Positions 10,901 to 51,755 of a stretch of 64,000 nucleotides of DNA are shown here, one piece after another. The stretch's first letter is position 1, and each line of letters starts with the position of its first letter. Below the pieces are notes generated by a model, which was given only the letters and a program-made list of their open reading frames with translations, did no database searches and was not told the origin of the DNA. The translations under genes were made by a program, and so were the position numbers. The stretch covers positions 44,949-108,948 of the forward strand of contig JAPLLX010000006.1 in NCBI GenBank assembly GCA_026387335.1, read 5' to 3'. Origin of the DNA: Candidatus Omnitrophota bacterium. Its GTDB lineage: Bacteria > Omnitrophota > Gorgyraeia > Gygaellales > Profunditerraquicolaceae.

Positions 10901-11151
10901 TCGGGTTTTTCTTTCGCGATTATCTTTTCCAGGCTTTCCGGAGTAAGCGGCTCAATATAGGTCCTGTCCGCCATTTCCGGGTCAGTCATAATCGTGGCCG
11001 GATTAGAATTAACTAAGACAATTTCATAACCTTCTTTCCTAAGCGCCTTACAGGCTTGCGTGCCGGAATAATCAAACTCGCAGGCCTGGCCGATAATAAT
11101 CGGGCCCGATCCAATAATTAATACTTTTTTAATATCTGAACGCCGGGGCAT
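7945..11151 (-). CDS. carB: Carbamoyl-phosphate synthase large subunit
   Basis: It starts MPRRSDIKKVLIIGSGPIIIGQACEFDYSGTQACKAL. It has duplicated ATP-grasp halves and a C-terminal MGS-like domain. Length is about 1068 aa. Confidence 0.93.
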   Translation of the reverse strand: MPRRSDIKKVLIIGSGPIIIGQACEFDYSGTQACKALRKEGYEIVLVNSNPATIMTDPEMADRTYIEPLTPESLEKIIAKEKPDALLPNLGGQTGLNLASSLFKSGVLKKYGVEVIGVKADAIERGEDREVFKQTMKQLGIPVPQSEIALCVEEAEVIASKLGYPVVIRPAYTLGGTGGGIVYNVEELRVIAQRGLNMSLVHQILVEEAVIGWEELELEVVRDNKNQKITVCFIENIDAMGVHTGDSFCVAPMLTVPQELQIRMQELSYKIVDAIGVVGGTNIQFAHNKKDDRLVVIEINPRTSRSSALASKATGFPIASVSTKLAAGLTLDEIPYWRDGTLEKYTPSGDYVVIKFARWAFEKFPKAKDILGTQMKAVGEVMSIGKTFKEAFQKSIRSLEIGRYGVGGAKNFKELSLDELKQRLSMPSSERIFLMYEALRKGMGVNELYEMTYIGEWFINEIKELVDFEEKLLTYTWNKLPDAQLLKAKEWGFADKYMAKLFSVKESEVRLRRVKLGKIARFEAVPVSGVEDAKYYYSTYSPGKDEVPVSSRKKIMILGGGPNRIGQGIEFDYTCVHAAFALRDAGLESIMVNCNPETVSTDYDTSNKLYFEPLTIEDVLAIYEKEKPAGVIVQFGGQTPLNIAQELKECGVKILGTTPESIAFAEDRELFRQKMIELDIPQPESGTARSLDEAVKIANAIGYPLMVRPSFVLGGRGMEIIYDEAMLRKCALEAIQVRPEFPMLIDRFLDNALETEVDALSDGNDTFVAAIMEHIEYAGIHSGDSACAIPSRSIKPEHLETIRKYTHKIATTLKVVGLMNIQYAICNDKVYILEANPRASRTVPVVSKVTGVLIARIATQLMLGKKLKDFPELDEKRKLAWFGVKEAVFPFNMFPEVDPVLGPEMKATGEVMGIADTFGLAFYKAQEAAGLKLPLSGSVLLTVNDKDKEEVVDIARRLKKLGFSIFATENTGAFLKGKGIESSPIKKLHEGRPNIADAIKNKEVNLILNTPVGRASKFDDSYIRIMAIQHKLPYITTMAAARASVEAIEAMQGSDICLKSLQEYHIKK

Positions 11152-15948: not shown

Positions 15949-16438
15949 TATTTCCTCTCCGCCTGTTTATAGACAGGCTATTTTTAAGTATGATCAATAA
16001 AACAACATAAGAAATTGCCGCCAGCAATAAAGAAATAACCAAATACCCGGTTACAACCGGTAGGGCTATCTTTAAAATTGAGGCGCTAAAGAAGTTTTGC
16101 CAATGCCAATTGCTTATAACCAGAGCCCAATCAGACTTTAGGCTTGGCCAACTTACATTAAATATAGCAGAACCGGTTTTAATTGCCAAGAGAAAAGTTA
16201 CCAAACTTAGCCAGGTATTGGTAAGCAGGCTTGAGGCTAAGGCGCTGGCGCGGTTGGCCCTGAATACAAATGCCAGAAACAAAGCTGCCAATGGCCCTGT
16301 CCCGGGTAAAATACCGGCAAAAACACCTAAGCCAAAGCCAAAAGCTATCCTTTGAGGTGTATCGTTAATCTTAAAAAGCTTCTCGTATAAGAAATCTTTT
16401 ATTTTTAGAAATACGCTTTTAGCCTTCTCTTTATCCAT
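15938..16438 (-). CDS. DUF2062 family membrane protein
   Basis: TPQRIAFGFGLGVFAGILPGTGPLAALFLAFVFRANRASAL matches the DUF2062 signature. Confidence 0.55.
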   Translation of the reverse strand: MDKEKAKSVFLKIKDFLYEKLFKINDTPQRIAFGFGLGVFAGILPGTGPLAALFLAFVFRANRASALASSLLTNTWLSLVTFLLAIKTGSAIFNVSWPSLKSDWALVISNWHWQNFFSASILKIALPVVTGYLVISLLLAAISYVVLLIILKNSLSINRRRGNNDY

Positions 16439-38920: not shown

Positions 38921-39811
38921 TTATTCTAGGATTATACCGGCATATCCTACCACCGAGCTTCTATCTCCTGTCGCCTCCGAGCTTGTCTGGTAATTAGCCA
39001 AGCGGGCGGTTTTAGCGCCTAAGGCCCGGGCCGCGCTGAGCATGACTATAACCGGCGCGTAACCACACATGGAAATATTATATTGTCCTATTACTTCCAA
39101 CAATTTATCCGGGTCAAGCTCTAGTATAGCATCTATCGCGATTTTATCTTTTGTCTCTGCCTTTTCCTGCGGCTCATAATGCGTCATATCTGAACTGGCT
39201 AAAAGCAGGACTTTATCCTCTAGGCTGTTCTTTTTTATGACCCGGGAGATGTCTTCCCCTATTTTCTTAAGAACAGTTAAATCATCCGACATAAACGCTA
39301 TCGGCACGATCTCAAAGCTTTTCTTGAAATACTGCAATAGCGGCAGCTGAACTTCTAAAGAATGCTCTTGAGCGTGGGCTAGAAAATCGTTTTTTAGGTA
39401 CCCGCAAGACCCTAAGATATTTTTGGCTAATTGAGCGTCAATATTTACTTGGCCCAACGGCGTAACCCAAGAACCCTCAGCCATTATGCTGTAGGCTTCG
39501 CCAAAACCGGTATGATTCGGGCCTAAGAGGATTACCTTATCTCTTATATTTATTCCAGCCAGTGTCTGAGCGGCAACCTTGCCTGAATATTTATATCCTG
39601 CGTGAGGAAGCATGCAGGCGATAGCGTTAACCTTAGAACTCTTGGAATCCAGGAAACCGTTGATGACTTTTTTTATATCCGCGGCTGACGCGGGATAAAA
39701 CTGCCCCGCCACTATAGCCTGGCGCGTTTTAGATAAGCCCATCAAATATTCTTTCCAGAAGCTCTTTGCTATTTTTAATATCTTTGGCTGTAGCCGGTTG
39801 ATGCGCTTCAA
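38921..39811 (-). CDS. MEMO1-family protein (AmmeMemoRadiSam system protein B-like)
   Basis: It has VAGQFYP, CMLPHAGYKYSG and LLGPNHTG motifs. Confidence 0.75.
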   Translation of the reverse strand: MKRINRLQPKILKIAKSFWKEYLMGLSKTRQAIVAGQFYPASAADIKKVINGFLDSKSSKVNAIACMLPHAGYKYSGKVAAQTLAGINIRDKVILLGPNHTGFGEAYSIMAEGSWVTPLGQVNIDAQLAKNILGSCGYLKNDFLAHAQEHSLEVQLPLLQYFKKSFEIVPIAFMSDDLTVLKKIGEDISRVIKKNSLEDKVLLLASSDMTHYEPQEKAETKDKIAIDAILELDPDKLLEVIGQYNISMCGYAPVIVMLSAARALGAKTARLANYQTSSEATGDRSSVVGYAGIILE

Positions 39812-40652
39812 TAACTTTTAAGGTCTCTTTTTTCAGGTAAGGCTTAAGCATGGAAAAATCCAGATCTCCGCTGGCCGGCGCCTGATGATCCCGGCAACCT
39901 ATTACATTATGTATATGCGCGCCGATCATTGCCTTACCGTATAATTCCAGATAGTCTTGTTGAGCGTAAAAACCTAAATTCTCCATCACCCGGGCGTGGC
40001 CTGTATCATGCCAATAAAAAATTCGGGAAGATTTGAATTCTCCTAAGATTACGCCTAACTCTTCTAAGTTGGGAATTTCGCGGTAATAAAACCTGTTTTC
40101 TACGCCTAGATATACGGATTTCTCCGCGGCGTATTTATTTAACTCTTCCAGGCTGCTCAGGGTATAATCAAGAAACGGGGTGGCGATACTGGCCCTATCC
40201 CTGAGGAACTCCTGTTTAACCAAGCGGTAACTTTCTGTATCTTTTAGCCCCCGGTCATAAAGATCAATGAGTTTCCTGGTCTGATCCTCCATTTCCACCC
40301 TACCGCAGTGTAAAATAACCACTTGGGCTCCCAAGAGGCTGGCTGTATCTATAGTCCTCTTGGTATATTTTAAGGCCTGGGCTCTTTCTTCCTTATCAAA
40401 AGAAGATATTGAATAACAATCAGGCAGGGCGTCTTTACGCTGGAACTCATCTGGTATGGGGCAGAAATTATGCACGCTCCTGACTTTAAGTTTGAGCTTT
40501 TCCTTTAACGCGGCTATCTCGGATACCATTAAAGGAGTAAGGTTAAAACTCAACTCTAAATCCGTAAAGCCGAGCTTGCTTATCTCAAAGAGCATATCTC
40601 TTGCTTTAGCGTAACGCAAGGCGTTCCAAGAAGTTGAAAGGGCAAGAGGCAT
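39729..40652 (-). CDS. Sugar phosphate isomerase/epimerase, xylose-isomerase-like TIM barrel
   Basis: 307 aa. Its pattern resembles the AP endonuclease 2 / Xyl_isomerase-like TIM barrel family. Confidence 0.5.
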   Translation of the reverse strand: MPLALSTSWNALRYAKARDMLFEISKLGFTDLELSFNLTPLMVSEIAALKEKLKLKVRSVHNFCPIPDEFQRKDALPDCYSISSFDKEERAQALKYTKRTIDTASLLGAQVVILHCGRVEMEDQTRKLIDLYDRGLKDTESYRLVKQEFLRDRASIATPFLDYTLSSLEELNKYAAEKSVYLGVENRFYYREIPNLEELGVILGEFKSSRIFYWHDTGHARVMENLGFYAQQDYLELYGKAMIGAHIHNVIGCRDHQAPASGDLDFSMLKPYLKKETLKVIEAHQPATAKDIKNSKELLERIFDGLI

Positions 40653-40889: not shown

Positions 40890-41300
40890 TTACAGGGAGT
40901 GTCAACAGCTTGTATATCCTATTAGCGTCTGCCTTGTCTTGTTTCTCGCAGGGCCGCACGATTTTCCCCAGCGTGGAAAATCGTGCTCGGCTACTCGGCT
41001 GCGCTCTCGCTAATTCTTGGATAGCGGGCGAACCCTGCCCGCTCCGCCTGCGTTACGCCCTGCTCCGAAACAAACCAAGTCATCCGCTAATGTAATCTAT
41101 AGATATTTTGCTTGAGGGTATTGTTAAGCGTGCAATTAGAAATTTTTCGGCAAATGTGTGCAAGGCTTTACGGCGAGTGTAGGCAATACCCTTTAGCGTG
41201 AGGAACCTTGCGCTGCCGGAGCGAGCCGTAAACCGTAGCACACGGCGAAAAATTTCGCACGCGAACAATACCCGAAGAGCGAGATATCAATAATTATGTA
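40890..41300. other. GC-rich, hairpin-dense intergenic stretch; candidate structured ncRNA. Strand and identity are unknown.
   Basis: GC is locally much higher than the flanks. Perfect hairpins are CACGATTTTCC/GGAAAATCGTG (40957-40985) and GCGGGC/GCCCGC (41024-41042). A long imperfect inverted repeat spans about 41140-41270. Confidence 0.35.
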
Positions 41301-41324: not shown

Positions 41325-42020
41325 TTATTCGACTTCAAAAGAGATTACTACGTTGAAGGAGAGCTGGGAATAGTCCAGTTCTTTGGGGAATTTCGGGAAG
41401 GGAGAGGCGTTTTTCACGCTGGCTAAAGCAACATCTTTAAGATAAGGCGCGCCTTGAGACTTTTCCTCCACTAACCGCACATCTTTAAGATATCCGGCGC
41501 TTGAGATTATAAAAGTAATATATACCTCTCCGGTATCGTTGCGGTTATAATTTTGATAGGCTGCCCGGCGGATTTTTTCGCGCACAATCTGATAATAGCT
41601 TATATAAGAAGGATTTCCGATTTTACCCATATCCACCGCCGGCAGGGTTATCTTCTTCTTTATCGCGATTATATCCGGCTTAATTAAGGCCGGCCGCTCA
41701 AGGATGAATTCTTTACGGGCGGCCTGCATATTGGATTTAGAGATAGCCTCCCTCTCTACAAAAGGCGGAGGATTCCTCTTCTCCATGTTAAGCTTAGAAG
41801 ACAAATCTAACAACGGTTCCCTTTTTGGTGGACTGGCCTTTTTTAGGCCCTTATTTAATTCCGGCTTTTCAGTTTTCGGCTGCTTAATATAATTGATTTC
41901 AATCTTGCGGTTCTCCTGCGCAGAAGAAAAAAACAGGTAACCCGAATTTTGGGCCACTATAACAGCGTGGACCGTAAAAGAGGCCAGAAAAGCAATTTGA
42001 AAACTGCGGTTGGATAACAT
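41325..42020 (-). CDS. tonB: TonB-like energy transducer
   Basis: It has a TM helix and a Pro/Lys-rich spacer. The C-terminus ...GEVYITFIISSAGYLKDVRLV... is a TonB_C fold. Confidence 0.7.
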   Translation of the reverse strand: MLSNRSFQIAFLASFTVHAVIVAQNSGYLFFSSAQENRKIEINYIKQPKTEKPELNKGLKKASPPKREPLLDLSSKLNMEKRNPPPFVEREAISKSNMQAARKEFILERPALIKPDIIAIKKKITLPAVDMGKIGNPSYISYYQIVREKIRRAAYQNYNRNDTGEVYITFIISSAGYLKDVRLVEEKSQGAPYLKDVALASVKNASPFPKFPKELDYSQLSFNVVISFEVE

Positions 42021-42070: not shown

Positions 42071-43897
42071 CTAGAATTCTGCTTTAAGGCCGCCAGTAAA
42101 AGAAAAACCCGGCATGGGATAACCATCCTGAATCTGATATTTACGATTTAGAAGATTATCTATATAGCCAAAACAAGTTATACCCGACTTAAATTTCTTG
42201 GATGCACTAAGCCCAAAAATATAAAAACTTTTTACCTTGATGTCATTACCAGCATCACCATATCTTATACCTGTAAATTGGCCTTTTAATTCAATAGTCA
42301 ACCCATTATGATCATTATATTTCAAACCAGCATCAATCTTATTCTCCGGTTGATAAAGAAGATATTTATGTGTTTGGGTATCCTTAGCGATTAAAAATGA
42401 ATAATCTAGCCCTAGTTCAAGGTTACCAGTAATAAATATTTTATTCTCGAATTCCAACCCTTGAATTACCGCGGATGCTACATTTGTCGGCCGCCATACA
42501 TTATTGCTATCTGGAGACCATTGGATAAGCTGTTTGTAATCACTATAAAAATAATTTAGCTTCGAAGTAAGGTACTGATTTATCTTTGCCTCAACGCCAA
42601 CTTCTTCACTTAGGCCTTTTTCTGGATTAAGGTTAGGATTCCCATCTGCCTCATAACCAGGATACGCCACATGAGGATAATACAAATCATTAAAAGTAGG
42701 CGCGCGGAATGAACGAGCAACTAAGGCATGAATCTTTACACTCTCATTAAATTTGTAAAGCATGCTTAAACTGGGATCTGTTGCTAAGCCGAAATTAGAA
42801 TAATCATCAATACGGCAGCTAAGATTGATATTCATTTTTTTATCAAATAAATCTAGGATATTCTCCAGGTATCCGGCGTTAACATTATATTTATGCTTTC
42901 CGCTAGTAGTACTATCGTTTAGGTTCCCTACATAATTAAATCCAAACACAACCTTATATATATCCCACAACTGCTCATCCAACTGTAAATTAAAACCTCT
43001 TACCGTAGTAGCCTCATTAATTTGAGTATAAGTGGTTGCCAGTCGGTCGTAATTCTGATAAGCCCTAGCAGATAACTCGGTTTTTACATCCGGTTTAAAA
43101 TTCCAGCTAAAATCAAAGAATCTTTTTAGTGTATTTTGTTTATCGCCAACATCAAGTGCGGTTATTGATCCCGGAAGACCTGATTTACTTTTATAAAAGC
43201 CGGAATTAAACTTTAAATTGTTTTCGTTATTGAGTTCATACCCTAATTTTAAATTACAATCTTCGGTATTAAGTTCGGAATTCGGGCGGAAACCTGCGGA
43301 ACTCTCATATCCTCCGCTAATCAGAAAATCAAATTTTGAAACATTTACTCCGTAAAGCATGCGCTCAATATAAGTTCGAGCAGTACCAAAACTTGAATAT
43401 AGTTCTGCCTTTTGACCTTTTTTAGGGGGATCCTTAGTAATAATATTCACCACCCCTCCCATTGCCGAGCTACCGTACAAGCTTGAACCGGGTCCATGCA
43501 TAACCTCAACCTGAGATATATTATCTAAAGGCATACTAGATAAATCCACTACGCCATCTCTTGGGTTATTGATTGGCCGGCCATCCATTAAAACTAAGAC
43601 TTGAGCGGAAGTAGAGCCGCGCATCCTGATGTTTTTATTGGTGCCCGGCCCGCCATAGTTGCTTATATCAACGGAAGTAAGCTCAGTTAAGGCATCGGCT
43701 AAATTTTGCGCTCCACCTCTTTCCATTTCTTTGGAGGTAACTACATCTACTGTGCGACCGATATCTCCAACGGATTCTTCTATTCTTGAAGGAGTGACTA
43801 CGATTTTATCTAACTCAACATCTTCTGCGCGGGCTGTGCCTGACAGGATTATTACCAATAACGCGGGGATGAACGATTTTCTACAAACATTTTTCAT
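42071..43897 (-). CDS. btuB: TonB-dependent outer-membrane receptor, BtuB-like, in cobalamin context
   Basis: Signal peptide MKNVCRKSFIPALLVIILSGTARA. TonB box/plug VVTPSRIEES...NIRMRGS. C-terminal ...GGLKAEF. The start was moved to 43897 (ATG with GAGGAAAGG Shine-Dalgarno site). Confidence 0.8.
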   Translation of the reverse strand: MKNVCRKSFIPALLVIILSGTARAEDVELDKIVVTPSRIEESVGDIGRTVDVVTSKEMERGGAQNLADALTELTSVDISNYGGPGTNKNIRMRGSTSAQVLVLMDGRPINNPRDGVVDLSSMPLDNISQVEVMHGPGSSLYGSSAMGGVVNIITKDPPKKGQKAELYSSFGTARTYIERMLYGVNVSKFDFLISGGYESSAGFRPNSELNTEDCNLKLGYELNNENNLKFNSGFYKSKSGLPGSITALDVGDKQNTLKRFFDFSWNFKPDVKTELSARAYQNYDRLATTYTQINEATTVRGFNLQLDEQLWDIYKVVFGFNYVGNLNDSTTSGKHKYNVNAGYLENILDLFDKKMNINLSCRIDDYSNFGLATDPSLSMLYKFNESVKIHALVARSFRAPTFNDLYYPHVAYPGYEADGNPNLNPEKGLSEEVGVEAKINQYLTSKLNYFYSDYKQLIQWSPDSNNVWRPTNVASAVIQGLEFENKIFITGNLELGLDYSFLIAKDTQTHKYLLYQPENKIDAGLKYNDHNGLTIELKGQFTGIRYGDAGNDIKVKSFYIFGLSASKKFKSGITCFGYIDNLLNRKYQIQDGYPMPGFSFTGGLKAEF

Positions 43898-43899
43898 TA

Positions 43900-44050
43900 T
43901 AAATTCCTTTCCTCTTCTCCGAAAGTACTTTCCCTGATAAATGATCGTCCGGGCTTTCACTATAAGAAATTTTAGTGTTTACCGTTGCGGGACAGCGCCT
44001 GGGCTCTCACCAGGACTTCCTCCATTTATCCGGTTTTGTATCCTTAAAGA
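43900..44050 (-). ncRNA. Cobalamin riboswitch, compact variant, in the btuB leader
   Basis: The minus strand reads GGAGGAAGUCCUGGUGAGAGCCCAGGCGCUGUCCCGCAACGGUAAAC. This matches the core GGGAA..GGUG..AA.CC...GC.G..CCCGC.AC.GU.A. The 3' B12-box region is divergent. Confidence 0.55.
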
Positions 44051-44054
44051 AGCT

Positions 44055-44729
44055 TTAAGAGTATTCTTGAATATCTAAGAACCAGTGTTTCCAGAAACTT
44101 TCTTTGATTATCGGTTCAGCCTTTAATATTTTAATCGGTTTTCTGAATATCGGCCCATCAACCACCAAAGTATGGAATTCTCCTTTCTCCCCACAGGGAC
44201 AAATTCCCTTTTTCTTTAACTCCTCAACTAATTCTTTATCAATATAGCGGCCAAGAAATTCTTTACCCATTATATCCGCCTTACAACTGACAATGATTGC
44301 CTTAAATCCTGCCTTTATAAACTCATCAACAATGCTCTCCGGGTCATTATTCCAAAGCGGCTCTATGGCGTTAATATTCAAATCGCCGCAGACCCGCTCG
44401 ATCCAGCTTTCATGTTCTAGAAGATAGATGTCACCAAAAACCATAGAGCCGATATCCTTACCCCTTAATTCAGTAACAGCAGCCTTAAATTCTTCTTCAT
44501 ATTTCTGCATATCCGGACTGACTTCTTTCTGCGTAAGAGGCACTCCGATTAAATCCGCCTGGAACTTTAACAATCTTCCTTCAATTCCATGAAAGCAACC
44601 CCGTTTTGACTCCCTTGAAATAAAGTTTAAAAGCAATTTTACATCAAAACCCTGCTTGATTGCCCTATAATAAGCCAAACAGCTGTCTTTGCCTCCACTC
44701 CACGATGATATTGCTTTTTGATTATCCAT
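44055..44729 (-). CDS. PP-loop ATPase of the Dph6/MJ0570 (COG2102) family, inside the cobalamin operon
   Basis: SWSGGKDSCLAYY is the PP-loop SGGxDS motif. Size is 224 aa. It overlaps the cobS stop by 8 nt. Confidence 0.7.
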   Translation of the reverse strand: MDNQKAISSWSGGKDSCLAYYRAIKQGFDVKLLLNFISRESKRGCFHGIEGRLLKFQADLIGVPLTQKEVSPDMQKYEEEFKAAVTELRGKDIGSMVFGDIYLLEHESWIERVCGDLNINAIEPLWNNDPESIVDEFIKAGFKAIIVSCKADIMGKEFLGRYIDKELVEELKKKGICPCGEKGEFHTLVVDGPIFRKPIKILKAEPIIKESFWKHWFLDIQEYS

Positions 44730-45471
44730 ATATCACCCCCCTTGTAATACAAACAATTAATAAAGTAATAACTTCGGTTAATTCGATTGTCGCTCCTAAC
44801 GTATCTCCGGTTATTCCACCGATTTTTCTACTGGCAAATCTGCCGAATAGATAAACAAAACCGGCTATAATTAATAACGCGATTAACCCTTTAATCTGCC
44901 AAATCGCAAATGAAAATACTAAAACCGATATTAATGCCAGTACAAAAATCCCCGGTGTCCTGCCTTGCATAAAAATCTTAGCCTTACCTTCCCTGCGGGC
45001 ATAAGGGAATAAAAATATAGCCGCTACCACTGACCAGCGGCTTAAAAGGCACATAAGAAGTAACGCGGTTATCTTTAATGGCGCCTGTAGCGCAGCAAGT
45101 AAACCGATTTTTAACAAGATAACGCTGATAACGCTTAAAACCCCCATTACCCCGATGTGCGGGTCGCGCATAATTGCCAGCATTTCATCTTTAGGTTTAT
45201 TGCTTAAGAAAGCATCCGCTGTATCGGAAAGCCCGTCCAGATGCATACCCCCGGTAAGAGCGATCAAGGCAACTACCAAGATTACGTTCGATGTAAAAGA
45301 AGGAAAATTCAGAATTGATATAATATAATTTATTCCCAAAAGAACCAACCCGATAAGCAACCCAACAAGCGGAAAATACGCTGCGGCTTTAGCTATCTTT
45401 TTCTCACCTGCATCTTTAATTTTAAGCGGTATAAGAGTCAGGAATTGAACTGCTAATAGGAAACTACTCAT
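44722..45471 (-). CDS. cobS: Adenosylcobinamide-GDP ribazoletransferase (cobalamin synthase)
   Basis: 249-aa polytopic membrane protein with ...LDGLSDTADAF..., the CobS signature. Confidence 0.85.
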   Translation of the reverse strand: MSSFLLAVQFLTLIPLKIKDAGEKKIAKAAAYFPLVGLLIGLVLLGINYIISILNFPSFTSNVILVVALIALTGGMHLDGLSDTADAFLSNKPKDEMLAIMRDPHIGVMGVLSVISVILLKIGLLAALQAPLKITALLLMCLLSRWSVVAAIFLFPYARREGKAKIFMQGRTPGIFVLALISVLVFSFAIWQIKGLIALLIIAGFVYLFGRFASRKIGGITGDTLGATIELTEVITLLIVCITRGVIYG

Positions 45472-46526
45472 TTATTCTTCTCCGAAACATTGGCGCTCTT
45501 AAAAGTAGCCATCTGGGTCAGGATCTTTATCGCGGCATCAGCTAATCCTATACCCAAAGCCCCGCCTGTGCCTTCGCCAAGCCTTAAATCCAGATCCAAG
45601 AGCGGTTTCAACCCTAAATAATTTAAAATTATCTTATGCCCGCTCTCTACAGAACAATGCGCCGAAATCATATAATCTTTTACCTTGGGCTCTAAGTTAT
45701 AAGCGACCAACGCCGCAGATCCCGAGATAAATCCATCAATAACCACAGGAACTTTTTTAGAAGCGGCAGCCAGGATTATCCCGGCTAATCCGCTTATCTC
45801 AAAACCGCCAACTTTAGCTAAAACATCAATAGGATCAGAAGAATCAGGCTGGTTTAAGGATAACGCTTTCTTAATAATATCTATTTTATTTTTAAGGCCC
45901 TTATCGTCAAGGCCGGCGCCCCGGCCGGTTATTTCTTCAACCGGTTTCTTAGTAAAACAGAAAGTTATAGCGCTGGCAGCGGTGGTATTACCAATGCCCA
46001 TCTCCCCTATCCCTACGATATCAATCCCTTTCCTGTATTCATTCTCAAATATTTCTATACCCGTTTCAATCGCTTTTATTGCCTCTTCTCTGGTCATTGC
46101 CGCGCCCTTAGCCATATTCTTTGTTCCATAATTAATTTTCTTAACCACCAGTCTGGGATCAGGCTCTAAATCGACACAAACACCCATATCCACAACCACT
46201 ACTCTTGCTCCAACGTGAGCGGCTAAAACATTTATTCCCGCGCCGCCCCTTAAAAAATTATAGACCATTTGAGCGGTAACTTCTTTAGGATAGGCGCTTA
46301 CCCCTTCATCAGTAACTCCGTGGTCGCTAGCTAAGGTAAAAATTACTTTATTCTTCAGTTGCGGATTTTCTTTTGCCGTTATACCGCATATTTGCTTAGC
46401 TAATTCCTCTAACCTGCCTAAACTTCCCAAAGGCTTAGTTAAATTATCCAACCTACTTTGAGCCTCCCGCATAATAACGGTATCTAGACCGGAAATATTC
46501 CTGATTACCTCATTTATCTTCTCCAC
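45468..46526 (-). CDS. cobT: Nicotinate-nucleotide--dimethylbenzimidazole phosphoribosyltransferase
   Basis: ...GIGEMGIGNTTAASA... and ...GGFEISGLAG... are CobT motifs. Confidence 0.88.
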   Translation of the reverse strand: MEKINEVIRNISGLDTVIMREAQSRLDNLTKPLGSLGRLEELAKQICGITAKENPQLKNKVIFTLASDHGVTDEGVSAYPKEVTAQMVYNFLRGGAGINVLAAHVGARVVVVDMGVCVDLEPDPRLVVKKINYGTKNMAKGAAMTREEAIKAIETGIEIFENEYRKGIDIVGIGEMGIGNTTAASAITFCFTKKPVEEITGRGAGLDDKGLKNKIDIIKKALSLNQPDSSDPIDVLAKVGGFEISGLAGIILAAASKKVPVVIDGFISGSAALVAYNLEPKVKDYMISAHCSVESGHKIILNYLGLKPLLDLDLRLGEGTGGALGIGLADAAIKILTQMATFKSANVSEKNK

Positions 46527-47051
46527 TTATTTTTCTCCTTTTATTTTCAGCGGTAGGCCCGAAATAGTAAAATAAACTTCCCCGGCTTCTTTGGCTATCG
46601 TTTGATTGACCCTTCCGGCAATATCGCGGAAGGCTCTTCCCAATTTATTATCCGGCACAATCCCTAAACCTACTTCATTAGAAACCAAAATTACCTTGGC
46701 TTTCTTTTTCTTTAAAACAACTACCAAATCTTCAATCTTTTTAAGGATTTGCTCCTGGCTCTTCCCGGACAAAATAAGATTGGAGACCAAAAGAGTCAAA
46801 CAATCAATGATTATGCAGTCGAATGAATCGCCGATTTTTGTCATTAAATCCGCTAATTCTTTCGGCTCTTCAAAAGTTTTCCAGTTCTTCGGCCGGGATG
46901 CCTGATGCTTCAAGATACGTTCTCGCATTTCTTTATCCAAACCCTGGCCAGTAGCAATAAAAGCCACTTTCTTCTTCCCTTTTGCCAAACTTAAAGCCTG
47001 CGCGCTCTTTCCGCTCCTTGCTCCCCCTAAAATTAAAATTATCTTATTCAT
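46527..47051 (-). CDS. cobU: Bifunctional adenosylcobinamide kinase / adenosylcobinamide-phosphate guanylyltransferase
   Basis: ILILGGARSGKSAQA is the P-loop. Size is 174 aa. Confidence 0.88.
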   Translation of the reverse strand: MNKIILILGGARSGKSAQALSLAKGKKKVAFIATGQGLDKEMRERILKHQASRPKNWKTFEEPKELADLMTKIGDSFDCIIIDCLTLLVSNLILSGKSQEQILKKIEDLVVVLKKKKAKVILVSNEVGLGIVPDNKLGRAFRDIAGRVNQTIAKEAGEVYFTISGLPLKIKGEK

Positions 47052-47054
47052 AAC

Positions 47055-47651
47055 TTACTCCAAGTGTTTTGTCTTGTTGAATTGTTTTATCCTGGGTTTC
47101 CCTTTTTTGTATTCAATCACGGTCAGGCTGGTCGCTTTCGGGACATAGCGCCAGAAATTATTTTTTTTCAATATACCGCATACTAATATTCCGATCACCC
47201 CTCCGTGGCAGACTATGGCCAGGTCTTTTCCGCTATTTAACCGGACAATCTTCTCTATGGCTTGATTGACTCTTTTTTTAAACACGCTCATCGGCTCAGC
47301 TTTAGGTATACAATCCTGATAAGGATCGCTCAACCATTTTTTATAAGCTAAAGGGTATTTTTTCATAATCTCTTTATGTTTTAAGCCTTCCAGGACACCG
47401 AAATTAATCTCCCTTAAAGCGCGCACCCGGATAATTTTGCATTCTTTAAAGAGGATCCGGCCAGTCTGGAGCGCACGCGACCTATCGCTAGAATAAATCT
47501 TATCGAACTTAAAGGATTTTAAACTTTTGGCTAAACTCTTAGCCTGCTCCTCTCCTTCTTTACTTAAGCCTACATCCCGAAAGCCGCAATAACGGCCTTT
47601 CTTATTCCATTCAGTCACTCCATGGCGGATCAAAGTAAGCCTGGTCACCAT
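47055..47651 (-). CDS. cobC: Alpha-ribazole phosphatase (histidine phosphatase family)
   Basis: LTLIRHGVTEWN is the RHG motif. Its position in the cob operon supports the call. Confidence 0.8.
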   Translation of the reverse strand: MVTRLTLIRHGVTEWNKKGRYCGFRDVGLSKEGEEQAKSLAKSLKSFKFDKIYSSDRSRALQTGRILFKECKIIRVRALREINFGVLEGLKHKEIMKKYPLAYKKWLSDPYQDCIPKAEPMSVFKKRVNQAIEKIVRLNSGKDLAIVCHGGVIGILVCGILKKNNFWRYVPKATSLTVIEYKKGKPRIKQFNKTKHLE

Positions 47652-48442
47652 TATTTCTCTCCCGGGACCAAAATCACGTTCGGCCTGCCTGTAACAGGAT
47701 TATTATTTACCAGGACAATAGTCTTATATACCGCCTCGATATTCTTATAGGTCAGCACATCTTCAGGGGTTCCTTCTTTGAATATGGAGCCGCTATCCAA
47801 CAAACAGATGCGGTTGCAGTAAGCGCTGGCCAGGTTTAGATCGTGTAAAACCATAACAATAGTCAGGTTACTCTGACGATTGAGTTTATTCAGCAGATCC
47901 ATAATCTGTATCTGATGTCCGATATCAAGATGCGAGGTCGGCTCATCCAGAAATAAAAGCACCGGCTCCTGAGCCAGGGAGCGCGCGATTACTACTCTCT
48001 GGCGCTCTCCCGCGCTTAGTTCATCAATCCTTTTGTCTTTTAAATCCGAAGAATCCGTTAAGGCCAAGGCCCTTTCGGAAATATCGAAATCTTTTTTAGT
48101 TTCAAACTGCAGTCTCTTTAGATGCGGGATCCTTCCCATTAAAACCAGTTCCAGCGCGCTAAAGGAAAAACTGGTAGAGATATCCTGGGCAACAAACGCT
48201 ACGCTCCGGCAGAATTCCTTTAAATCCATATTAAAAATATTTTTACCCTGAAAATAAATACCGCCTTTGCGCGGATATATTACGCGGGAACTTAAGCGTA
48301 AAAGCGTAGTCTTACCGGAGCCATTAGGACCGATAATCCCCATAAAATCACCCGGATTGATCTCCAGAGAAACATTTCTGATAATATCCAATTTAAAATA
48401 CCCGGCGCTCAAATTACTTATTTTAAAAAATGCCTTCATCAA
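47651..48442 (-). CDS. btuD: ABC transporter ATP-binding protein, BtuD/FepC type
   Basis: GPNGSGKTT, LSAGERQRV and LLFLDEPTSHLD motifs. Confidence 0.8.
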   Translation of the reverse strand: MMKAFFKISNLSAGYFKLDIIRNVSLEINPGDFMGIIGPNGSGKTTLLRLSSRVIYPRKGGIYFQGKNIFNMDLKEFCRSVAFVAQDISTSFSFSALELVLMGRIPHLKRLQFETKKDFDISERALALTDSSDLKDKRIDELSAGERQRVVIARSLAQEPVLLFLDEPTSHLDIGHQIQIMDLLNKLNRQSNLTIVMVLHDLNLASAYCNRICLLDSGSIFKEGTPEDVLTYKNIEAVYKTIVLVNNNPVTGRPNVILVPGEK

Positions 48443-49401
48443 ATCCTTTTTCCCCGTTTTAATAAAATAATAAAGGCCGGCGCTCCGATCATCGCGGTAA
48501 TCACTCCGATAGGGATCTCAACCGGAGCGAATAGGGTGCGCGCGAAAACATCACAGACTATCATAAATATGGAAGCCGCCAGGCAAGTAGTTGGGATTAA
48601 CATCCTATGATTCGGCCCTACAATCGACCGCATCATATGCGGCACAATCAAACCTACAAACCCGATTATTCCGCAAATACAAATCAGGCTGGCAGTGATT
48701 AAGGAAGTAGTAACGATTAAAATATTTTTAACCTTATGCATATCTATCCCCAGGTGCACGGCTTCCTCTTCGCCCAGCTGAATCGCATTCAGGTCCTGGG
48801 CAAAAGCATAAATCACGCCTATCCCTGATATTACCGGTATTGAAATTAAAAGGACTAACTTCCAGTCATAAACCTGCAAGGAACCCCACAACCACCAGTT
48901 CATTTCATGCATAGCCTCATCGCCGAAGAGAGAAACCAAAAAGACTATTATTGAAGAGAAAGCTACCGAGATGATTACCCCGGAAAGAATCAGGGATTTA
49001 TCCGCTATTTTTTTTCTTTCGGCAGACAAGGTATAAACTAAAACAATACTTACCAGCGCTCCCAGGAATGCTGCCAGAGGCATATAGATCCTGGAAAGGC
49101 CTAGAATCACCGCTATTACCGCTGCCAGTCCTGCGCCGCTAGAAGTTCCTAAAAGGTAGGGTTCAGCTAACGGGTTTCTTAAAATTGCCTGCAGGGCTAT
49201 ACCGGAAACCGCTAAGCCGCTTCCGACAAGAATAGCCGCCAGTATTCTAAGCAGGCGCAGATTAAGAATAACCGCGTTATCTTTAAATAAAAGATTGACT
49301 AAGGGAATATGCACCGCGCCCTTCACTAACCCCAGGATTACCGCTAGGCAAAGTAGTAAAAATAAGACCAGTAATGTTTTCTTTAAGCGTTTAATTATCA
49401 T
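48439..49401 (-). CDS. btuC: FecCD-family ABC permease (BtuC-like)
   Basis: 320-aa polytopic permease with the FecCD signature. Confidence 0.8.
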   Translation of the reverse strand: MIIKRLKKTLLVLFLLLCLAVILGLVKGAVHIPLVNLLFKDNAVILNLRLLRILAAILVGSGLAVSGIALQAILRNPLAEPYLLGTSSGAGLAAVIAVILGLSRIYMPLAAFLGALVSIVLVYTLSAERKKIADKSLILSGVIISVAFSSIIVFLVSLFGDEAMHEMNWWLWGSLQVYDWKLVLLISIPVISGIGVIYAFAQDLNAIQLGEEEAVHLGIDMHKVKNILIVTTSLITASLICICGIIGFVGLIVPHMMRSIVGPNHRMLIPTTCLAASIFMIVCDVFARTLFAPVEIPIGVITAMIGAPAFIILLKRGKRI

Positions 49402-50225
49402 TGAGAATAAAATCGTTTATAGAGCTCTCTTAATCCTTGCGTAATTCTTGGGCCTGGCCTAAGTAATGTATCCGGATCAATATCATTAAATACCCGCTTA
49501 TTCCTTACTGCTTCAATATTCTTCCAGCCAAAACGCCCCTCTACCAGCTTTAAAGGAGATTCTTTATCCATGTAAGCCATAATAATACAACCGGGATTAA
49601 GGCTGATTACCTTCTCCGCGCTAAAATAACAGTAAGGCCGCGGGACATCATGCGCGACATTGATACCTCCCGCTAAAATAATAAGTTCGTCAATAATTGA
49701 ACCGGCCCCCGCGGTCATCAGCGGCTCATGCCAAATCTCGACAAAAACCTTGACCCTCTTTTCTTGAGGTATAAGCCTCACCTTTACGCTTATCTCCTCA
49801 ATATCATCTTCCATATTCTTAATTAAGGCGAGCGCCTCTTTATCTTTATGGGTAATCGAACCTATATCCTTAATGGATTTAAGCAATTCCTCCATAGTCT
49901 TAGGATAAGCCACATAGAGATTAAATCCTAAACGCCTTAATTCCTCGACGACCGGCGCCTGCTCCAGACCAGTACAGAAAATATAATCCGGCTTCAATGA
50001 TATTATAGTCTCGATGTTGGGATGGCTAAAATCTCCGACCTTAGCCTTATTTTTAGTTAAGAGAGGATAATTACAATATGAACTCACTCCAATAATATTC
50101 TTATCCAGTCCTAAGGCAAAAAGAATCTCGGTTGTTGAAGGCGCCAGAGAAATGTATTTCGCAGCGGCTTCTGCCTTGGCCCAGATTATCGATAGGAATA
50201 TTATGCTGACTATTATTTTCTTCAT
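49398..50225 (-). CDS. btuF: Periplasmic cobalamin-binding protein (class III substrate-binding protein, BtuF-like)
   Basis: MKKIIVSIIFLSIIWAKA is a signal peptide. YISLAPSTTEILFALG... is BtuF-like. The start was moved downstream of the riboswitch terminator. Confidence 0.75.
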   Translation of the reverse strand: MKKIIVSIIFLSIIWAKAEAAAKYISLAPSTTEILFALGLDKNIIGVSSYCNYPLLTKNKAKVGDFSHPNIETIISLKPDYIFCTGLEQAPVVEELRRLGFNLYVAYPKTMEELLKSIKDIGSITHKDKEALALIKNMEDDIEEISVKVRLIPQEKRVKVFVEIWHEPLMTAGAGSIIDELIILAGGINVAHDVPRPYCYFSAEKVISLNPGCIIMAYMDKESPLKLVEGRFGWKNIEAVRNKRVFNDIDPDTLLRPGPRITQGLRELYKRFYSQ

Positions 50226-50242
50226 ACAATACACCCGGTAAC

Positions 50243-50470
50243 AAAAAACCCGATCCGGCATTTCTGCCTGAATCGGGCTGCACCCTAATAATACTATGGC
50301 CCATTCCACGAGGCGAATCTACTGATATAGGCAGGTCTTCTGGCTTGGGGTCGCTCTACTCGCTTTTTAGCCTTCCCATCCAAATCCGGACAGTGGCTTA
50401 ACTCTCTAGCTTTCGTCACCCTTACAGCGGCGGGACCGCATCAGCTTATCACTGATTTCCCTAACCTATA
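50243..50470 (-). ncRNA. Cobalamin (AdoCbl) riboswitch with an intrinsic-terminator expression platform
   Basis: The minus strand reads GGGAAAUCAGUGAUAAGCUGAUGCGGUCCCGCCGCUGUAAGG ... B12 box GCCACUG ... GGGAAGGC ... GCCAGAAGACCUGCC. It ends with the hairpin CCCGAUUCAGGCAGAAAUGCCGGAUCGGG followed by UUUUUUG. Confidence 0.85.
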
Positions 50471-50519
50471 ATTAAATGGCTTTGCCTAAATGAAGGCAAA
50501 CCATGGCCTTGCGGCCAAT

Positions 50520-50557
50520 TATCTTCTCTACTTTAACACTCAGAAAATATTTGTCAA
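50520..50557 (-). promoter_or_regulatory. Candidate sigma70 promoter driving the riboswitch and btuF operon
   Basis: On the minus strand, TTGACA is followed after 16 nt by TAAAGT, about 60 nt upstream of the riboswitch 5' end. Confidence 0.4.
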
Positions 50558-50575: not shown

Positions 50576-51079
50576 TTAGAATTCAATACCCTTTCGCGCC
50601 CGGAGGCCCTTCTTGAAATAATGTTTTCTCTCTCTTATCTCGCTGACTAAATCCGCTAACTTTATAATATCCGGGTGAGCGTAGCGGCCGGTAAGGATCA
50701 ATTCTGTTTTCTTGGGTAGACTTTTTAGAAGGCTTAAAACATCTTTTAAATCGACGAGTTTAAGTTTTAAAGCAATGTTTATTTCATCAAGCACGATTAA
50801 TGAATAACTTTTGTCTCGAATTGCTTTTTTTGCCGCTACTAATCCGGCTTGCGCCAGCTTAATATCTTCTTCCCGAGGTAAATGCCGAATAAAACATTTT
50901 GACCCAAATTGTTCGACTTTTATATTCTTAAATTTCTTCAGAGAATGCAATTCACAGTAATCTTTGCCTTTTAAGAATTGACAGATATATACCTTATGGC
51001 CTGCGCCGCTTGCCCTTAAAGCCAAACCCAGCGCCGCCGTAGTCTTTCCTTTTCCATTACCGGTATAGACTTGAATCAA
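50576..51079 (-). CDS. cobO: Cob(I)yrinic acid a,c-diamide adenosyltransferase
   Basis: It starts MIQVYTGNGKGKTTAALGLALRASGAG and has the CobA/BtuR P-loop. Confidence 0.85.
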   Translation of the reverse strand: MIQVYTGNGKGKTTAALGLALRASGAGHKVYICQFLKGKDYCELHSLKKFKNIKVEQFGSKCFIRHLPREEDIKLAQAGLVAAKKAIRDKSYSLIVLDEINIALKLKLVDLKDVLSLLKSLPKKTELILTGRYAHPDIIKLADLVSEIRERKHYFKKGLRARKGIEF

Positions 51080-51086
51080 GGTAACC

Positions 51087-51755
51087 TCACTTTGACCCTT
51101 TGATAACCAGCCTCAAGAATCTGAAGGTATCCACAAAGGGATTAATCTGGCTCTTTTCTCCCCTGTAAACAGTCTTCACAGGGACTGATTCAATTTTAAA
51201 ACCTAAACGCGCAGCTTTAATTAAAATCTCGGTTTCTGTCTCAAACTTATTTGTTTTTAGCTCAACCTTCTCAAGAACAGCCCTTTTTATCAACCTGAAC
51301 CCGCATTGCGTATCGGGAATACTCTGTTTGCTTAAAACTGATATTACCAACGACATAAATTTATTCGTGATAACCCGCAACCAGGGCATATCCTTGGTCT
51401 GGCGCATGCGGTTTCCTACAAATACATCGCTCCGGGATTTTAGGGCTTGGTGTATTAAGCAGGATAAATCCTCAGGCAGGTGCTGGCCGTCTCCGTCCAT
51501 AGTTATTACAGCGTCAAAATCATGCGTAAGCGCGTACTTAAAACCTTTTTTTAAACACGCTCCCTTTCCTTCATTAACCGGATTTATTAAAACTACAGCC
51601 CCGGCGCTGGAGGCGATTCTAGCGGTAGAATCTGTTGAGCCGTCATCTACCACTAAAACATCCAGGTTACTCTCCTTAATCTGCTTAACCAGCCTGAATA
51701 TTTCTTTTGCTTCGTTATATGTCGGTATAATAACGCAGGTAATCATTCTTTCCAA
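51087..51755 (-). CDS. Family 2 glycosyltransferase (polyprenyl-phosphate sugar transferase-like)
   Basis: It has the VIIPTYNE start and DDGSTD...DGDGQH GT-A motifs. Confidence 0.75.
   Translation of the reverse strand: MERMITCVIIPTYNEAKEIFRLVKQIKESNLDVLVVDDGSTDSTARIASSAGAVVLINPVNEGKGACLKKGFKYALTHDFDAVITMDGDGQHLPEDLSCLIHQALKSRSDVFVGNRMRQTKDMPWLRVITNKFMSLVISVLSKQSIPDTQCGFRLIKRAVLEKVELKTNKFETETEILIKAARLGFKIESVPVKTVYRGEKSQINPFVDTFRFLRLVIKGSK

Follow-up and report, generated by a model that had tools for sequence, protein, structure and literature searches.

The DUF71/COG2102 family was divided by de Crécy-Lagard, Forouhar, Brochier-Armanet, Tong and Hunt (Biol Direct 2012, PMC3541065) into Dph6 and a second subgroup, DUF71-B12, which comprises bacterial and some archaeal copies. 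In that study DUF71-B12 genes were found to cluster with btuFCD and cbiB, adjoining B12 transporter genes in 75 of 102 cases and cbiB in 18 of 102. A signature ENGEF/YH188 was set against the EGGE/DxE188 of Dph6, and all residues assigned to the binding of elongation factor 2 (EF-2) in Dph6 were different in DUF71-B12 (PMC3541065). A role as an adenosyl-pseudo-B12 amidohydrolase, or some other role in pseudo-B12 salvage, was cautiously proposed (PMC3541065), and a review by that group in 2016 still listed the subgroup as 'function unknown, B12 salvage' (PMC5041015). The present analysis concerns a gene of this kind, located at 44055..44729 on the minus strand of a 64,000-nucleotide stretch of DNA (the window, always taken at its full length) from a Candidatus Omnitrophota bacterium, a phylum not found among the 2012 genomes in the accessible sections of that paper (PMC3541065). 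The gene adds another member to a subfamily recognised in 2012 and does not represent a new kind of enzyme. A sequence-only reading of the same DNA had presented it as a candidate novel corrinoid-modifying enzyme; that claim to novelty fails because the DUF71-B12 subgroup was defined in 2012, when the same inference was published (PMC3541065), to be listed again in 2016 (PMC5041015). What is new here is the Omnitrophota example and, together with related loci, an argument against regarding DUF71-B12 as a simple substitute for the amidohydrolase CbiZ.

The open reading frame (ORF) at 44055..44729 starts with ATG and encodes a product of 224 amino acids (aa), which opens with MDNQKAISSWSGGKDSCLAYY and carries the PP-loop SGGKDS as residues 11-16 and the C-terminal motif GEKGEFHT as residues 180-187; a purine-rich, Shine-Dalgarno-like AGGGGGG lies 7-13 nt 5' of the ATG. 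Judged from profile matches and diagnostic residues, the protein almost certainly falls within DUF71-B12, a subgroup of the PF01902/COG2102 PP-loop ATP pyrophosphatases. Its assignment to COG2102 in the sequence-only reading was borne out over the full length by PF01902 (Diphthami_syn_2; E=5.5e-59, 199.8 bits, cut-off 23.2), the match spanning protein residues 5-223 and profile positions 2-217 of 219. Matches to PF01902 and PF28410 are also precomputed for an identical database protein, which was recorded from a Candidatus Omnitrophica metagenome-assembled genome (MAG) under the name 'diphthine--ammonia ligase'; an 87%-identical relative carries the name 'Dph6-related ATP pyrophosphatase'.

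A two-domain architecture (in this family, a HUP domain at the N-terminus followed by a novel C-terminal domain), as described by the Pfam models PF01902 and PF28410, is probably shared with the Dph6 proteins (EC 6.3.1.14), represented by P. furiosus PF0828 (structures 3RJZ/3RK0/3RK1), P. horikoshii PH1257 (2D13) and yeast YLR143W. The window protein was aligned with the archaeal structures 3RJZ and 2D13 across residues 10-207 (E=6.6e-27 for PF0828), its PP-loop facing S12-D16 of PF0828. These two were the only matches in a sequence search for solved structures, and none came from the DUF71-B12 subgroup. Against TIGR03679, the archaeal Dph6 equivalog model, the window protein scored 154.8 bits, under the cut-off of 197.3; because of this score and of the His that replaces Glu188, the protein is, on the evidence of its sequence, not Dph6 proper. 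Its host is moreover a bacterium, and bacteria are without diphthamide (PMC3541065). An AlphaFold2 model built on a shallow alignment (37 sequences, the homologs 80-92% identical) had a mean predicted local distance difference test (pLDDT) of 63, which fell below 50 over large parts of the C-terminal region (segments 141-165, 175-200 and 208-218).

A search of 1.84 billion cluster representatives gave 4417 matches at E<=0.001; the counts that follow refer to the 150 nearest of these 4417, unfiltered. In the alignment, GEKGEFHT of the window protein stands opposite GEGGEFET of PF0828, with His186 in place of Glu188. The position equivalent to Glu188 is occupied by His in 140 of the 150 sequences, by a gap in 8, by Gln and Tyr in one each and by Glu in none. 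The PP-loop is well kept (S 141, G 137, G 142, K 142, D 133 plus 9 E; 7 gaps per position). At the second residue of the C-terminal motif the window protein has Lys, as do 11 of the 150; Asn is the commonest residue there.

Seventy-nine full-length subgroup sequences have SGGKD, His47, Gln57, Gly99, Pro124, Trp126 and G-E-x-G-E in common with both Dph6 structures. Specific to the subgroup, and all present in the window protein, are Trp10, Tyr77, Phe98, Asp100, Ile101, Trp109, Leu125, His186 and Gly192. Apart from His186, each of these is conserved in >=80% of the 79 and is unlike PF0828 and PH1257. The 79 sequences were picked by two motifs, so that only the non-motif positions and the count on the unfiltered 150 constitute independent evidence; W10, Y77, D100, W109 and L125 were upheld on the unfiltered set. 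In this sequence comparison, the changes from Dph6 to the window protein include Tyr11 to Trp, Glu78 to Tyr, Ala98 to Asp, Arg107 to Trp and Glu188 to His, in keeping with a protein that is not a true Dph6. Domain fusions within the subgroup (P0122, P0224, P0124 and P0189) were considered as a functional clue and found uninformative: they comprise a 458-aa protein with two DUF71 domains in tandem (DUF71-DUF71), one of 386 aa in which some 170 residues at the N-terminus look GNAT acetyltransferase-like by eye, and proteins of 523 and 2455 aa with a long repeat region before the DUF71 domain.

Genomic context was compared by searching one genome per GTDB species with the subgroup profile. At least 599 matches were confirmed, of which 80 loci (numbered with the prefix L) were kept with <=10 kb of flanking DNA. 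They span Omnitrophota, Planctomycetota, Lentisphaerota, Atribacterota, Chloroflexota/Dehalococcoidia, Nitrospirota and Deltaproteobacteria, and also come from Clostridia, Bacteroidota, Bathyarchaeia, Methanosarcinales/ANME and others. Families of neighbouring genes were obtained by unsupervised BLAST clustering of all flanking ORFs, and all neighbour counts are lower bounds because such clustering misses divergent members. In the window itself, the gene and its surroundings consist of the following features, all on the minus strand and listed in the order of transcription:

50576..51079, minus: cobA/btuR corrinoid adenosyltransferase (PF02572 E=1.5e-62; NF004637 194.7 bits vs cut-off 185)
50530..50557, minus: candidate sigma-70-like promoter before riboswitch 1 (TTGACA-16-TAAAGT plus upstream TG)
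50313..50504, minus: cobalamin riboswitch 1, leader of the operon from btuF to the DUF71-B12 gene (RF00174 98.9 bits vs gathering score 31.5)
49398..50309, minus: btuF-like periplasmic corrinoid-binding protein (PF01497; best NCBIfam match BtuF NF002894, under its cut-off)
48439..49401, minus: btuC-like ATP-binding cassette (ABC) permease (seeds the BtuC group that adjoins BtuF and BtuD in related loci)
47651..48442, minus: btuD-like ABC ATPase (in the BtuD group of 35 of the 80 loci; Pfam ABC_tran recorded for the identical L001 gene)
47055..47651, minus: cobC-like alpha-ribazole phosphatase of the histidine phosphatase family (PF00300 E=3.7e-55; TIGR03162 149.7 bits, under the cut-off of 162.9)
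46527..47051, minus: cobU, adenosylcobinamide kinase/adenosylcobinamide-phosphate guanylyltransferase (NF004469 207.9 bits vs cut-off 161)
45468..46526, minus: cobT, nicotinate mononucleotide:dimethylbenzimidazole phosphoribosyltransferase (TIGR03160 466.8 bits vs cut-off 319)
44722..45471, minus: cobS, adenosylcobinamide-GDP ribazoletransferase (PF02654 E=9.8e-56; TIGR00317 150 bits vs cut-off 110)
44055..44729, minus: DUF71-B12 subfamily PP-loop ATP pyrophosphatase (ORF call and PF01902)
43902..44047, minus: cobalamin riboswitch 2, a variant, btuB leader (RF01482 45.6 bits vs gathering score 50, local E=2.6e-7)
42071..43897, minus: btuB-like TonB-dependent receptor (Plug and TonB_dep_Rec domains; best NCBIfam match TonB-B12, under its cut-off)
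41325..42020, minus: TonB C-terminal-domain protein downstream of btuB (PF03544, TIGR01352)

Riboswitch 1 lies directly 5' of btuF and is followed by btuFCD-cobC-cobU-cobT-cobS-DUF71-B12, the DUF71-B12 gene being the last of the series; from btuF to the DUF71-B12 gene, neighbouring genes overlap by up to 8 nt or are up to 3 nt apart. The place of the gene in a riboswitch-controlled cobU/cobT/cobC/cobS/btuFCD operon, as described in the sequence-only reading, was recovered in both the ORF layout and the RF00174 score, and the overlap of its start with the cobS stop was found to be 8 nt. This anatomy indicates that the gene is translationally coupled to cobS and transcribed with btuFCD-cobC-cobU-cobT-cobS from a riboswitch-gated promoter. 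The promoter candidate (50557..50530) has 10 of 12 consensus matches and is the top-listed of several 10/12 sites; it is a consensus match only. Co-regulation of the gene by B12 is likewise read from the layout of the operon. Given a riboswitch-gated promoter, synthesis of the protein would be confined to times of B12 shortage in the cell. The cobA/btuR gene is placed outside the riboswitch-controlled unit because it lies upstream of the promoter and of riboswitch 1. Compared with the subgroup as defined in 2012, the window protein has the PP-loop, the ExGE[F/Y]H histidine, the subgroup residues and the clustering with btuFCD and cob salvage genes in common and differs in nothing essential; the differences are the Lys of its motif and an operon without cbiB.

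The remark in the sequence-only reading that CbiB/CobD and amidotransferases are missing from the operon stands for CbiB, CobD and CbiP within the 64-kb window, where no homolog was detected by phmmer with seeds from related loci (E<1e-3). The window likewise contained no CbiZ, CbiR, AsnB-like protein or CbpB, and a source of aminopropanol was not found in the operon. An AP_endonuc_2 ORF at 39729..40652 on the minus strand, which encodes a xylose-isomerase-like TIM barrel of 307 aa from the superfamily of CbiR, was considered as a CbiR candidate and rejected: it lies beyond rpsU, homologs are absent from all 80 DUF71-B12 loci, and it does not resemble the CbiR of L004, so that a relation to the operon is improbable.

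Riboswitch 2, the presence of which before btuB had also been noted from the sequence alone, was missed at the Rfam gathering thresholds and was seen as an adenosylcobalamin (AdoCbl) element, RF01482, in a local search. The model is matched in the 94-nt spacer after the DUF71-B12 ORF and in the first 60 nt of the btuB ORF as called by the gene-finding tool. The variant scores 29-46 bits, under the Rfam gathering score in every copy tested; it has the core GGAAGTCCTGGTGA...CTGTCSCGCAACGGTAA and an unusual B12-box, with AGYCCGGTCGATC in place of AGYCAGAAGACCTGCC. The element is nevertheless taken as real because counterparts occupy the same place in five relatives (L003:10683-10811, L004:11571-11755, L005:10676-10905, L006:10664-10850 and L038:3777-3896) and because compensatory pairs were found in the closing helix P1 of a 7-sequence alignment. 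A first 7-sequence alignment, in which long and short forms had been mixed, aligned poorly and was dropped. The start of btuB called by the tool (GTG 43960) falls inside riboswitch 2, for which reason ATG 43897 is favoured and is probably the true start; from there btuB reads MKNVCRKSF..., followed by a signal-peptide-like stretch.

Three further observations were made around these genes. A family-2 glycosyltransferase gene followed by cobA/btuR (window 50576-51755, minus strand) precedes the btuF riboswitch, as it does in L003, L004 and L028, and L021 likewise has this pair upstream of DUF71. The tonB-like gene and rpsU are separated by an ORF-free gap of ~450 nt (window 40930-41300, minus strand), which folds at -144 kcal/mol (z=-5.4; none of 100 shuffles as good) and gave no Rfam match at E<=1; at the corresponding place L004 has a short palindrome (16199-16259). 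Two DUF71-B12 copies flank btuB in a Planctomycetia MAG (L021:6182-6961 and 9998-10678), with a cobalamin riboswitch also between both copies, and in an Omnitrophota MAG (L009:7663-8388 and 10251-10943).

Across the 80 loci the neighbours were predominantly those of B12 transport (BtuD in 35 loci, BtuF 29, BtuC 24, BtuB 17) and of nucleotide-loop assembly (CobS 27, CobT 23, CobU 22, CobC 19). Further neighbours were CobA (13), a CobD-like aminotransferase (12), an Asn-synthase-like protein (12), CbiB (10), a radical SAM/SPASM enzyme (9; SAM, S-adenosylmethionine), CbiP (7) and archaeal CobT with CobY (4). At least one specific cob/btu gene lies within 10 kb in 47 of the 80 loci and at least three in 31, and a gene of cob/btu context is immediately upstream on the same strand in 34 (5 AsnB-like and 3 CbpB radical SAM genes counted in). 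The core order cobC-cobU-cobT-cobS-X is kept in the closest relatives (Omnitrophota and Planctomycetales, 57-87% identity), with btuFCD before the core in all but L005 and btuB after it where the sequence extends. A cobalamin riboswitch was found upstream on the same strand in 19 of the 80 loci: Rfam models detected one in 6 of 8 loci tested, and the covariance model R1, built from four riboswitches, detected one in 17 loci at E<1e-9. R1 finds the classical form well and misses riboswitch 2 of the window as well as L013; because known elements are missed, riboswitch counts are lower bounds.

A role of DUF71-B12 in corrinoid salvage is, on these grounds, likely. The supposition that homologs are never associated with cob/btu genes or riboswitches in other genomes fails, since B12 association recurs across phyla (cob/btu genes in 47 and riboswitches in 19 of the 80 loci). 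The opposite view, by which the protein is a general ATP pyrophosphatase with no B12 role whose place beside cob genes is due to chance or operon shuffling, could draw on the 33 loci (some of them on short contigs) in which no cob/btu neighbour was recognised and on the unrelated neighbour genes seen in Atribacterota, Chitinophagaceae and Methanothrix loci. It is, however, highly improbable in view of the same-strand, often overlapping cob/btu genes in seven named bacterial and archaeal groups (Omnitrophota, Planctomycetota, Nitrospirota, Chloroflexota, Deltaproteobacteria, Clostridia and Bathyarchaeia) and of the upstream riboswitches in 19 loci, and the same conclusion had been drawn independently from other genomes in 2012 (PMC3541065).

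Which step of salvage might be served was considered by comparison with the remodelling enzymes, given in the accessible part of Mok et al. 2020 (PMC7733943) as CbiZ, some CobS proteins and CbiR. According to the 2012 hypothesis, DUF71-B12 would do the job of bacterial CbiZ, that is, cleave adenosyl-pseudo-B12 or other unusable cobamides, or provide some other way from them to adenosylcobyric acid, after which CbiB would rebuild the linker. In its favour are the strict anticorrelation with bacterial CbiZ and the finding that genomes encoding CbiB carry either CbiZ or DUF71-B12 (PMC3541065), and in the present set 10 of the 80 loci also contain CbiB, sometimes directly adjacent (L041, L048). 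CbiZ (adenosylcobinamide/pseudo-B12 amidohydrolase, PF01955) is, like DUF71-B12, encoded in riboswitch-controlled salvage operons beside btu genes, but it belongs to an unrelated family and acts independently of ATP. An amidohydrolase needs no ATP, and yet the PP-loop of DUF71-B12 is conserved; as a matter of chemical reasoning, O-adenylation of an amide is not expected to favour cleavage of the C-N bond. Nor was cbiB or cobD found in the window operon or the operons of its closest relatives, or CbiB anywhere in the 64-kb window, and in 19 loci CobS/T/U were present with no CbiB in the flanking DNA examined.

Direct counter-examples came from 110 unassigned ORFs lying on the same strand within <=1.2 kb of a DUF71-B12 gene, which were scanned against Pfam. 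In a Nitrospirae MAG (L045:3502-4257, plus strand) the end of the DUF71-B12 gene and a CbiZ gene (PF01955) of the same operon overlap, and in a Deltaproteobacteria MAG (L064:5214-7277, plus strand) the DUF71-B12 operon encodes a 687-aa fusion of a BtuF-like periplasmic binding domain with CbiZ. L045 and L064 are counter-examples to the strict bacterial DUF71-B12/CbiZ anticorrelation of 2012, and the two proteins are not simply interchangeable. A true CbiR (NF041277 254.6 bits vs cut-off 105) is encoded directly 3' of the DUF71-B12 gene at L004:10735-11508 (plus strand). L004 comes from a close Omnitrophota relative with the same operon, the DUF71-B12 protein being 83% identical to that of the window, and its order is DUF71-B12, CbiR, variant riboswitch, btuB. 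CbiR is described, in the part of its report that was accessible, as an AP endonuclease 2 superfamily phosphodiesterase that serves salvage as an accessory upstream of CobU/CobS and for which CbiB is not needed (PMC7733943); its fold and chemistry are unrelated to those of DUF71-B12. That operons are shared with CbiR at one locus and with CbiZ at two bacterial loci speaks against DUF71-B12 being merely a CbiZ replacement, and a CbiZ-like function is considered unlikely.

The same two CbiZ loci bear on a different proposal, in which DUF71-B12 would adenylate the f-carboxylate of (adenosyl)cobyric acid and couple it to aminopropanol or its phosphate, as a soluble alternative or helper to CbiB. 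Such chemistry would suit an adenylating carboxylate-amine ligase without a glutaminase domain; in L045 and L064 the adjacent CbiZ would produce cobyric acid, with no CbiB in the flanks examined there, and the window operon has CobU, with its cobinamide kinase activity, and no CbiB. A replacement for CbiB would not, however, be expected beside it, whereas CbiB and the CobD-like aminotransferase adjoin the gene in 10 to 12 loci, and the window operon is without a source of aminopropanol. This linker-forming role is rated as rather unlikely.

Two other recurrent neighbours raise the question of a peptide or protein substrate. The AsnB-like protein, which occurs in bacteria and archaea (L032, L035, L037, L044, L045, L050, L053, L059, L063, L064, L071 and L076), has PF00733 and a zinc ribbon but no glutaminase domain. 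The radical SAM/SPASM neighbour (L009, L041, L045, L048, L063, L067, L070, L073 and L075) matched TIGR04163 'rSAM_cobopep CbpB' with 686.6 bits and is named 'peptide-modifying radical SAM enzyme CbpB' in NCBIfam; a literature search on TIGR04163/CbpB returned unrelated papers only. A small 'cobalamin-operon peptide', or a Btu or Cob protein, might accordingly be what DUF71-B12 modifies: Dph6 itself amidates a protein side chain, the peptide-modifying CbpB adjoins the gene in 9 of 80 loci, and the family of the Asn-synthase-like neighbour (12 of 80) includes lasso-peptide and macrolactam cyclases, models of which appeared here as no more than weak secondary NCBIfam matches. This is nonetheless a very unlikely explanation, as 71 of the 80 loci, that of the window included, are without CbpB, no candidate peptide gene was identified, and all EF-2-binding residues of Dph6 differ in the subgroup (PMC3541065).

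To our knowledge, every characterised PP-loop ATP pyrophosphatase first transfers AMP to a substrate oxygen, after which a nitrogen or sulfur nucleophile displaces the AMP. In NadE, QueC and the C-terminal domain of asparagine synthetase, which depend on ammonia, an oxygen is adenylated and nitrogen then displaces AMP; Dph6, the nearest characterised relative of DUF71-B12, amidates a carboxylate with free ammonia. NadE, QueC and asparagine synthetase have the PP-loop chemistry in common with DUF71-B12 and differ in their C-terminal domains and substrates, and we know of none that acts on corrinoids. The net reaction considered here for DUF71-B12, an ATP-dependent amidation of a corrinoid carboxylate, would be the same as that of CbiA/CobB and CbiP/CobQ. 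These glutamine-using enzymes, which amidate corrinoid side chains in de novo synthesis, are of a different family (CbiA P-loop domain plus GATase_3), and the nucleotide they form is ADP, not AMP.

An ATP-dependent amidation or ligation on a carboxylate of a salvaged corrinoid, close to what the sequence-only reading had suggested, is put forward tentatively for DUF71-B12. ATP-dependent ligation is favoured because the PP-loop has been kept, a glutaminase domain is absent and the residues on the substrate side have been replaced, and it is favoured over CbiZ replacement because of the retained PP-loop and the operons shared with CbiZ and CbiR. The AsnB-like adenylating enzyme paired with the gene in 12 of 80 loci would fit a substrate with several carboxylates; together with the co-occurrence of CbiR and CbiZ, it provides a modest new argument on the function of the subfamily, mildly in favour of such a ligation. 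ATP would be bound on the SGGKDS loop as in Dph6, and the carboxylate would be adenylated with release of pyrophosphate; the acyl group would then be passed to free ammonia or a small amine, DUF71-B12 being without a glutaminase domain. An imported corrinoid, either incompletely amidated or deamidated (hydrolysed), would supply the carboxylate from one of its side chains, and a new substrate site may be formed by His186 (for Glu188), Asp100, Tyr77, Trp10 and Trp109. In the simplest version the side chain would be re-amidated with ammonia, and the product would then enter the nucleotide-loop pathway of the co-encoded CobU/CobS/CobT/CobC. Stated for the subfamily, DUF71-B12 could thus be an ammonia- or amine-dependent corrinoid carboxylate ligase that finishes or repairs incompletely amidated imports, in some lineages with an AsnB-like partner; this specific assignment is rated as less likely than not. 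The broader proposition, that DUF71-B12 proteins are bacterial and archaeal Dph6 paralogs recruited to corrinoid salvage, with the carboxylate amidation mechanism included, is the best explanation found, at somewhat less than an even chance. The probability left over by the readings named belongs to possibilities not thought of.

Several points weigh against the proposed ligase. Literature searches gave no experimental characterisation or substrate test of DUF71-B12; the remark in the sequence-only reading that no characterised PP-loop enzyme is known in B12 metabolism agrees with the literature searched. The AlphaFold model is too poor in the C-terminal, substrate-side domain for inspection of the pocket. 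The phylogenetic profile of 2012, with its CbiZ anticorrelation and CbiB co-occurrence, points to a CbiZ-like role. The glutamine-dependent amidotransferase CbiP adjoins the gene in 7 of the 80 loci, where the need for another amidating enzyme is therefore not obvious, and it is an assumption that natural pools hold enough deamidated corrinoids for selection. The 33 loci that have no recognisable cob/btu neighbour count here as well, the more so as they include Atribacterota proteins 54-55% identical to that of the window.

Microbial communities are shaped by the sharing of cobamides, which most bacteria obtain by salvage and do not make themselves. Few entry points for salvage are known to us: cobinamide (Cbi) enters via CobU, and CbiZ, CbiR or CobS serve for remodelling. 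DUF71-B12 is widespread; its motif is carried by at least 599 GTDB species genomes, and the subfamily occurs inside the B12 regulons of many phyla. If the ligase proposed here is correct, DUF71-B12 would be the first PP-loop enzyme of B12 metabolism, catalysing a salvage step for which no enzyme has been described, and would differ from CbiZ and CbiR, found with it in shared operons, while complementing them. If DUF71-B12 does act on corrinoids, a missing ATP-dependent step would be added to salvage, and genome-based predictions of 'Cbi salvagers' would change.

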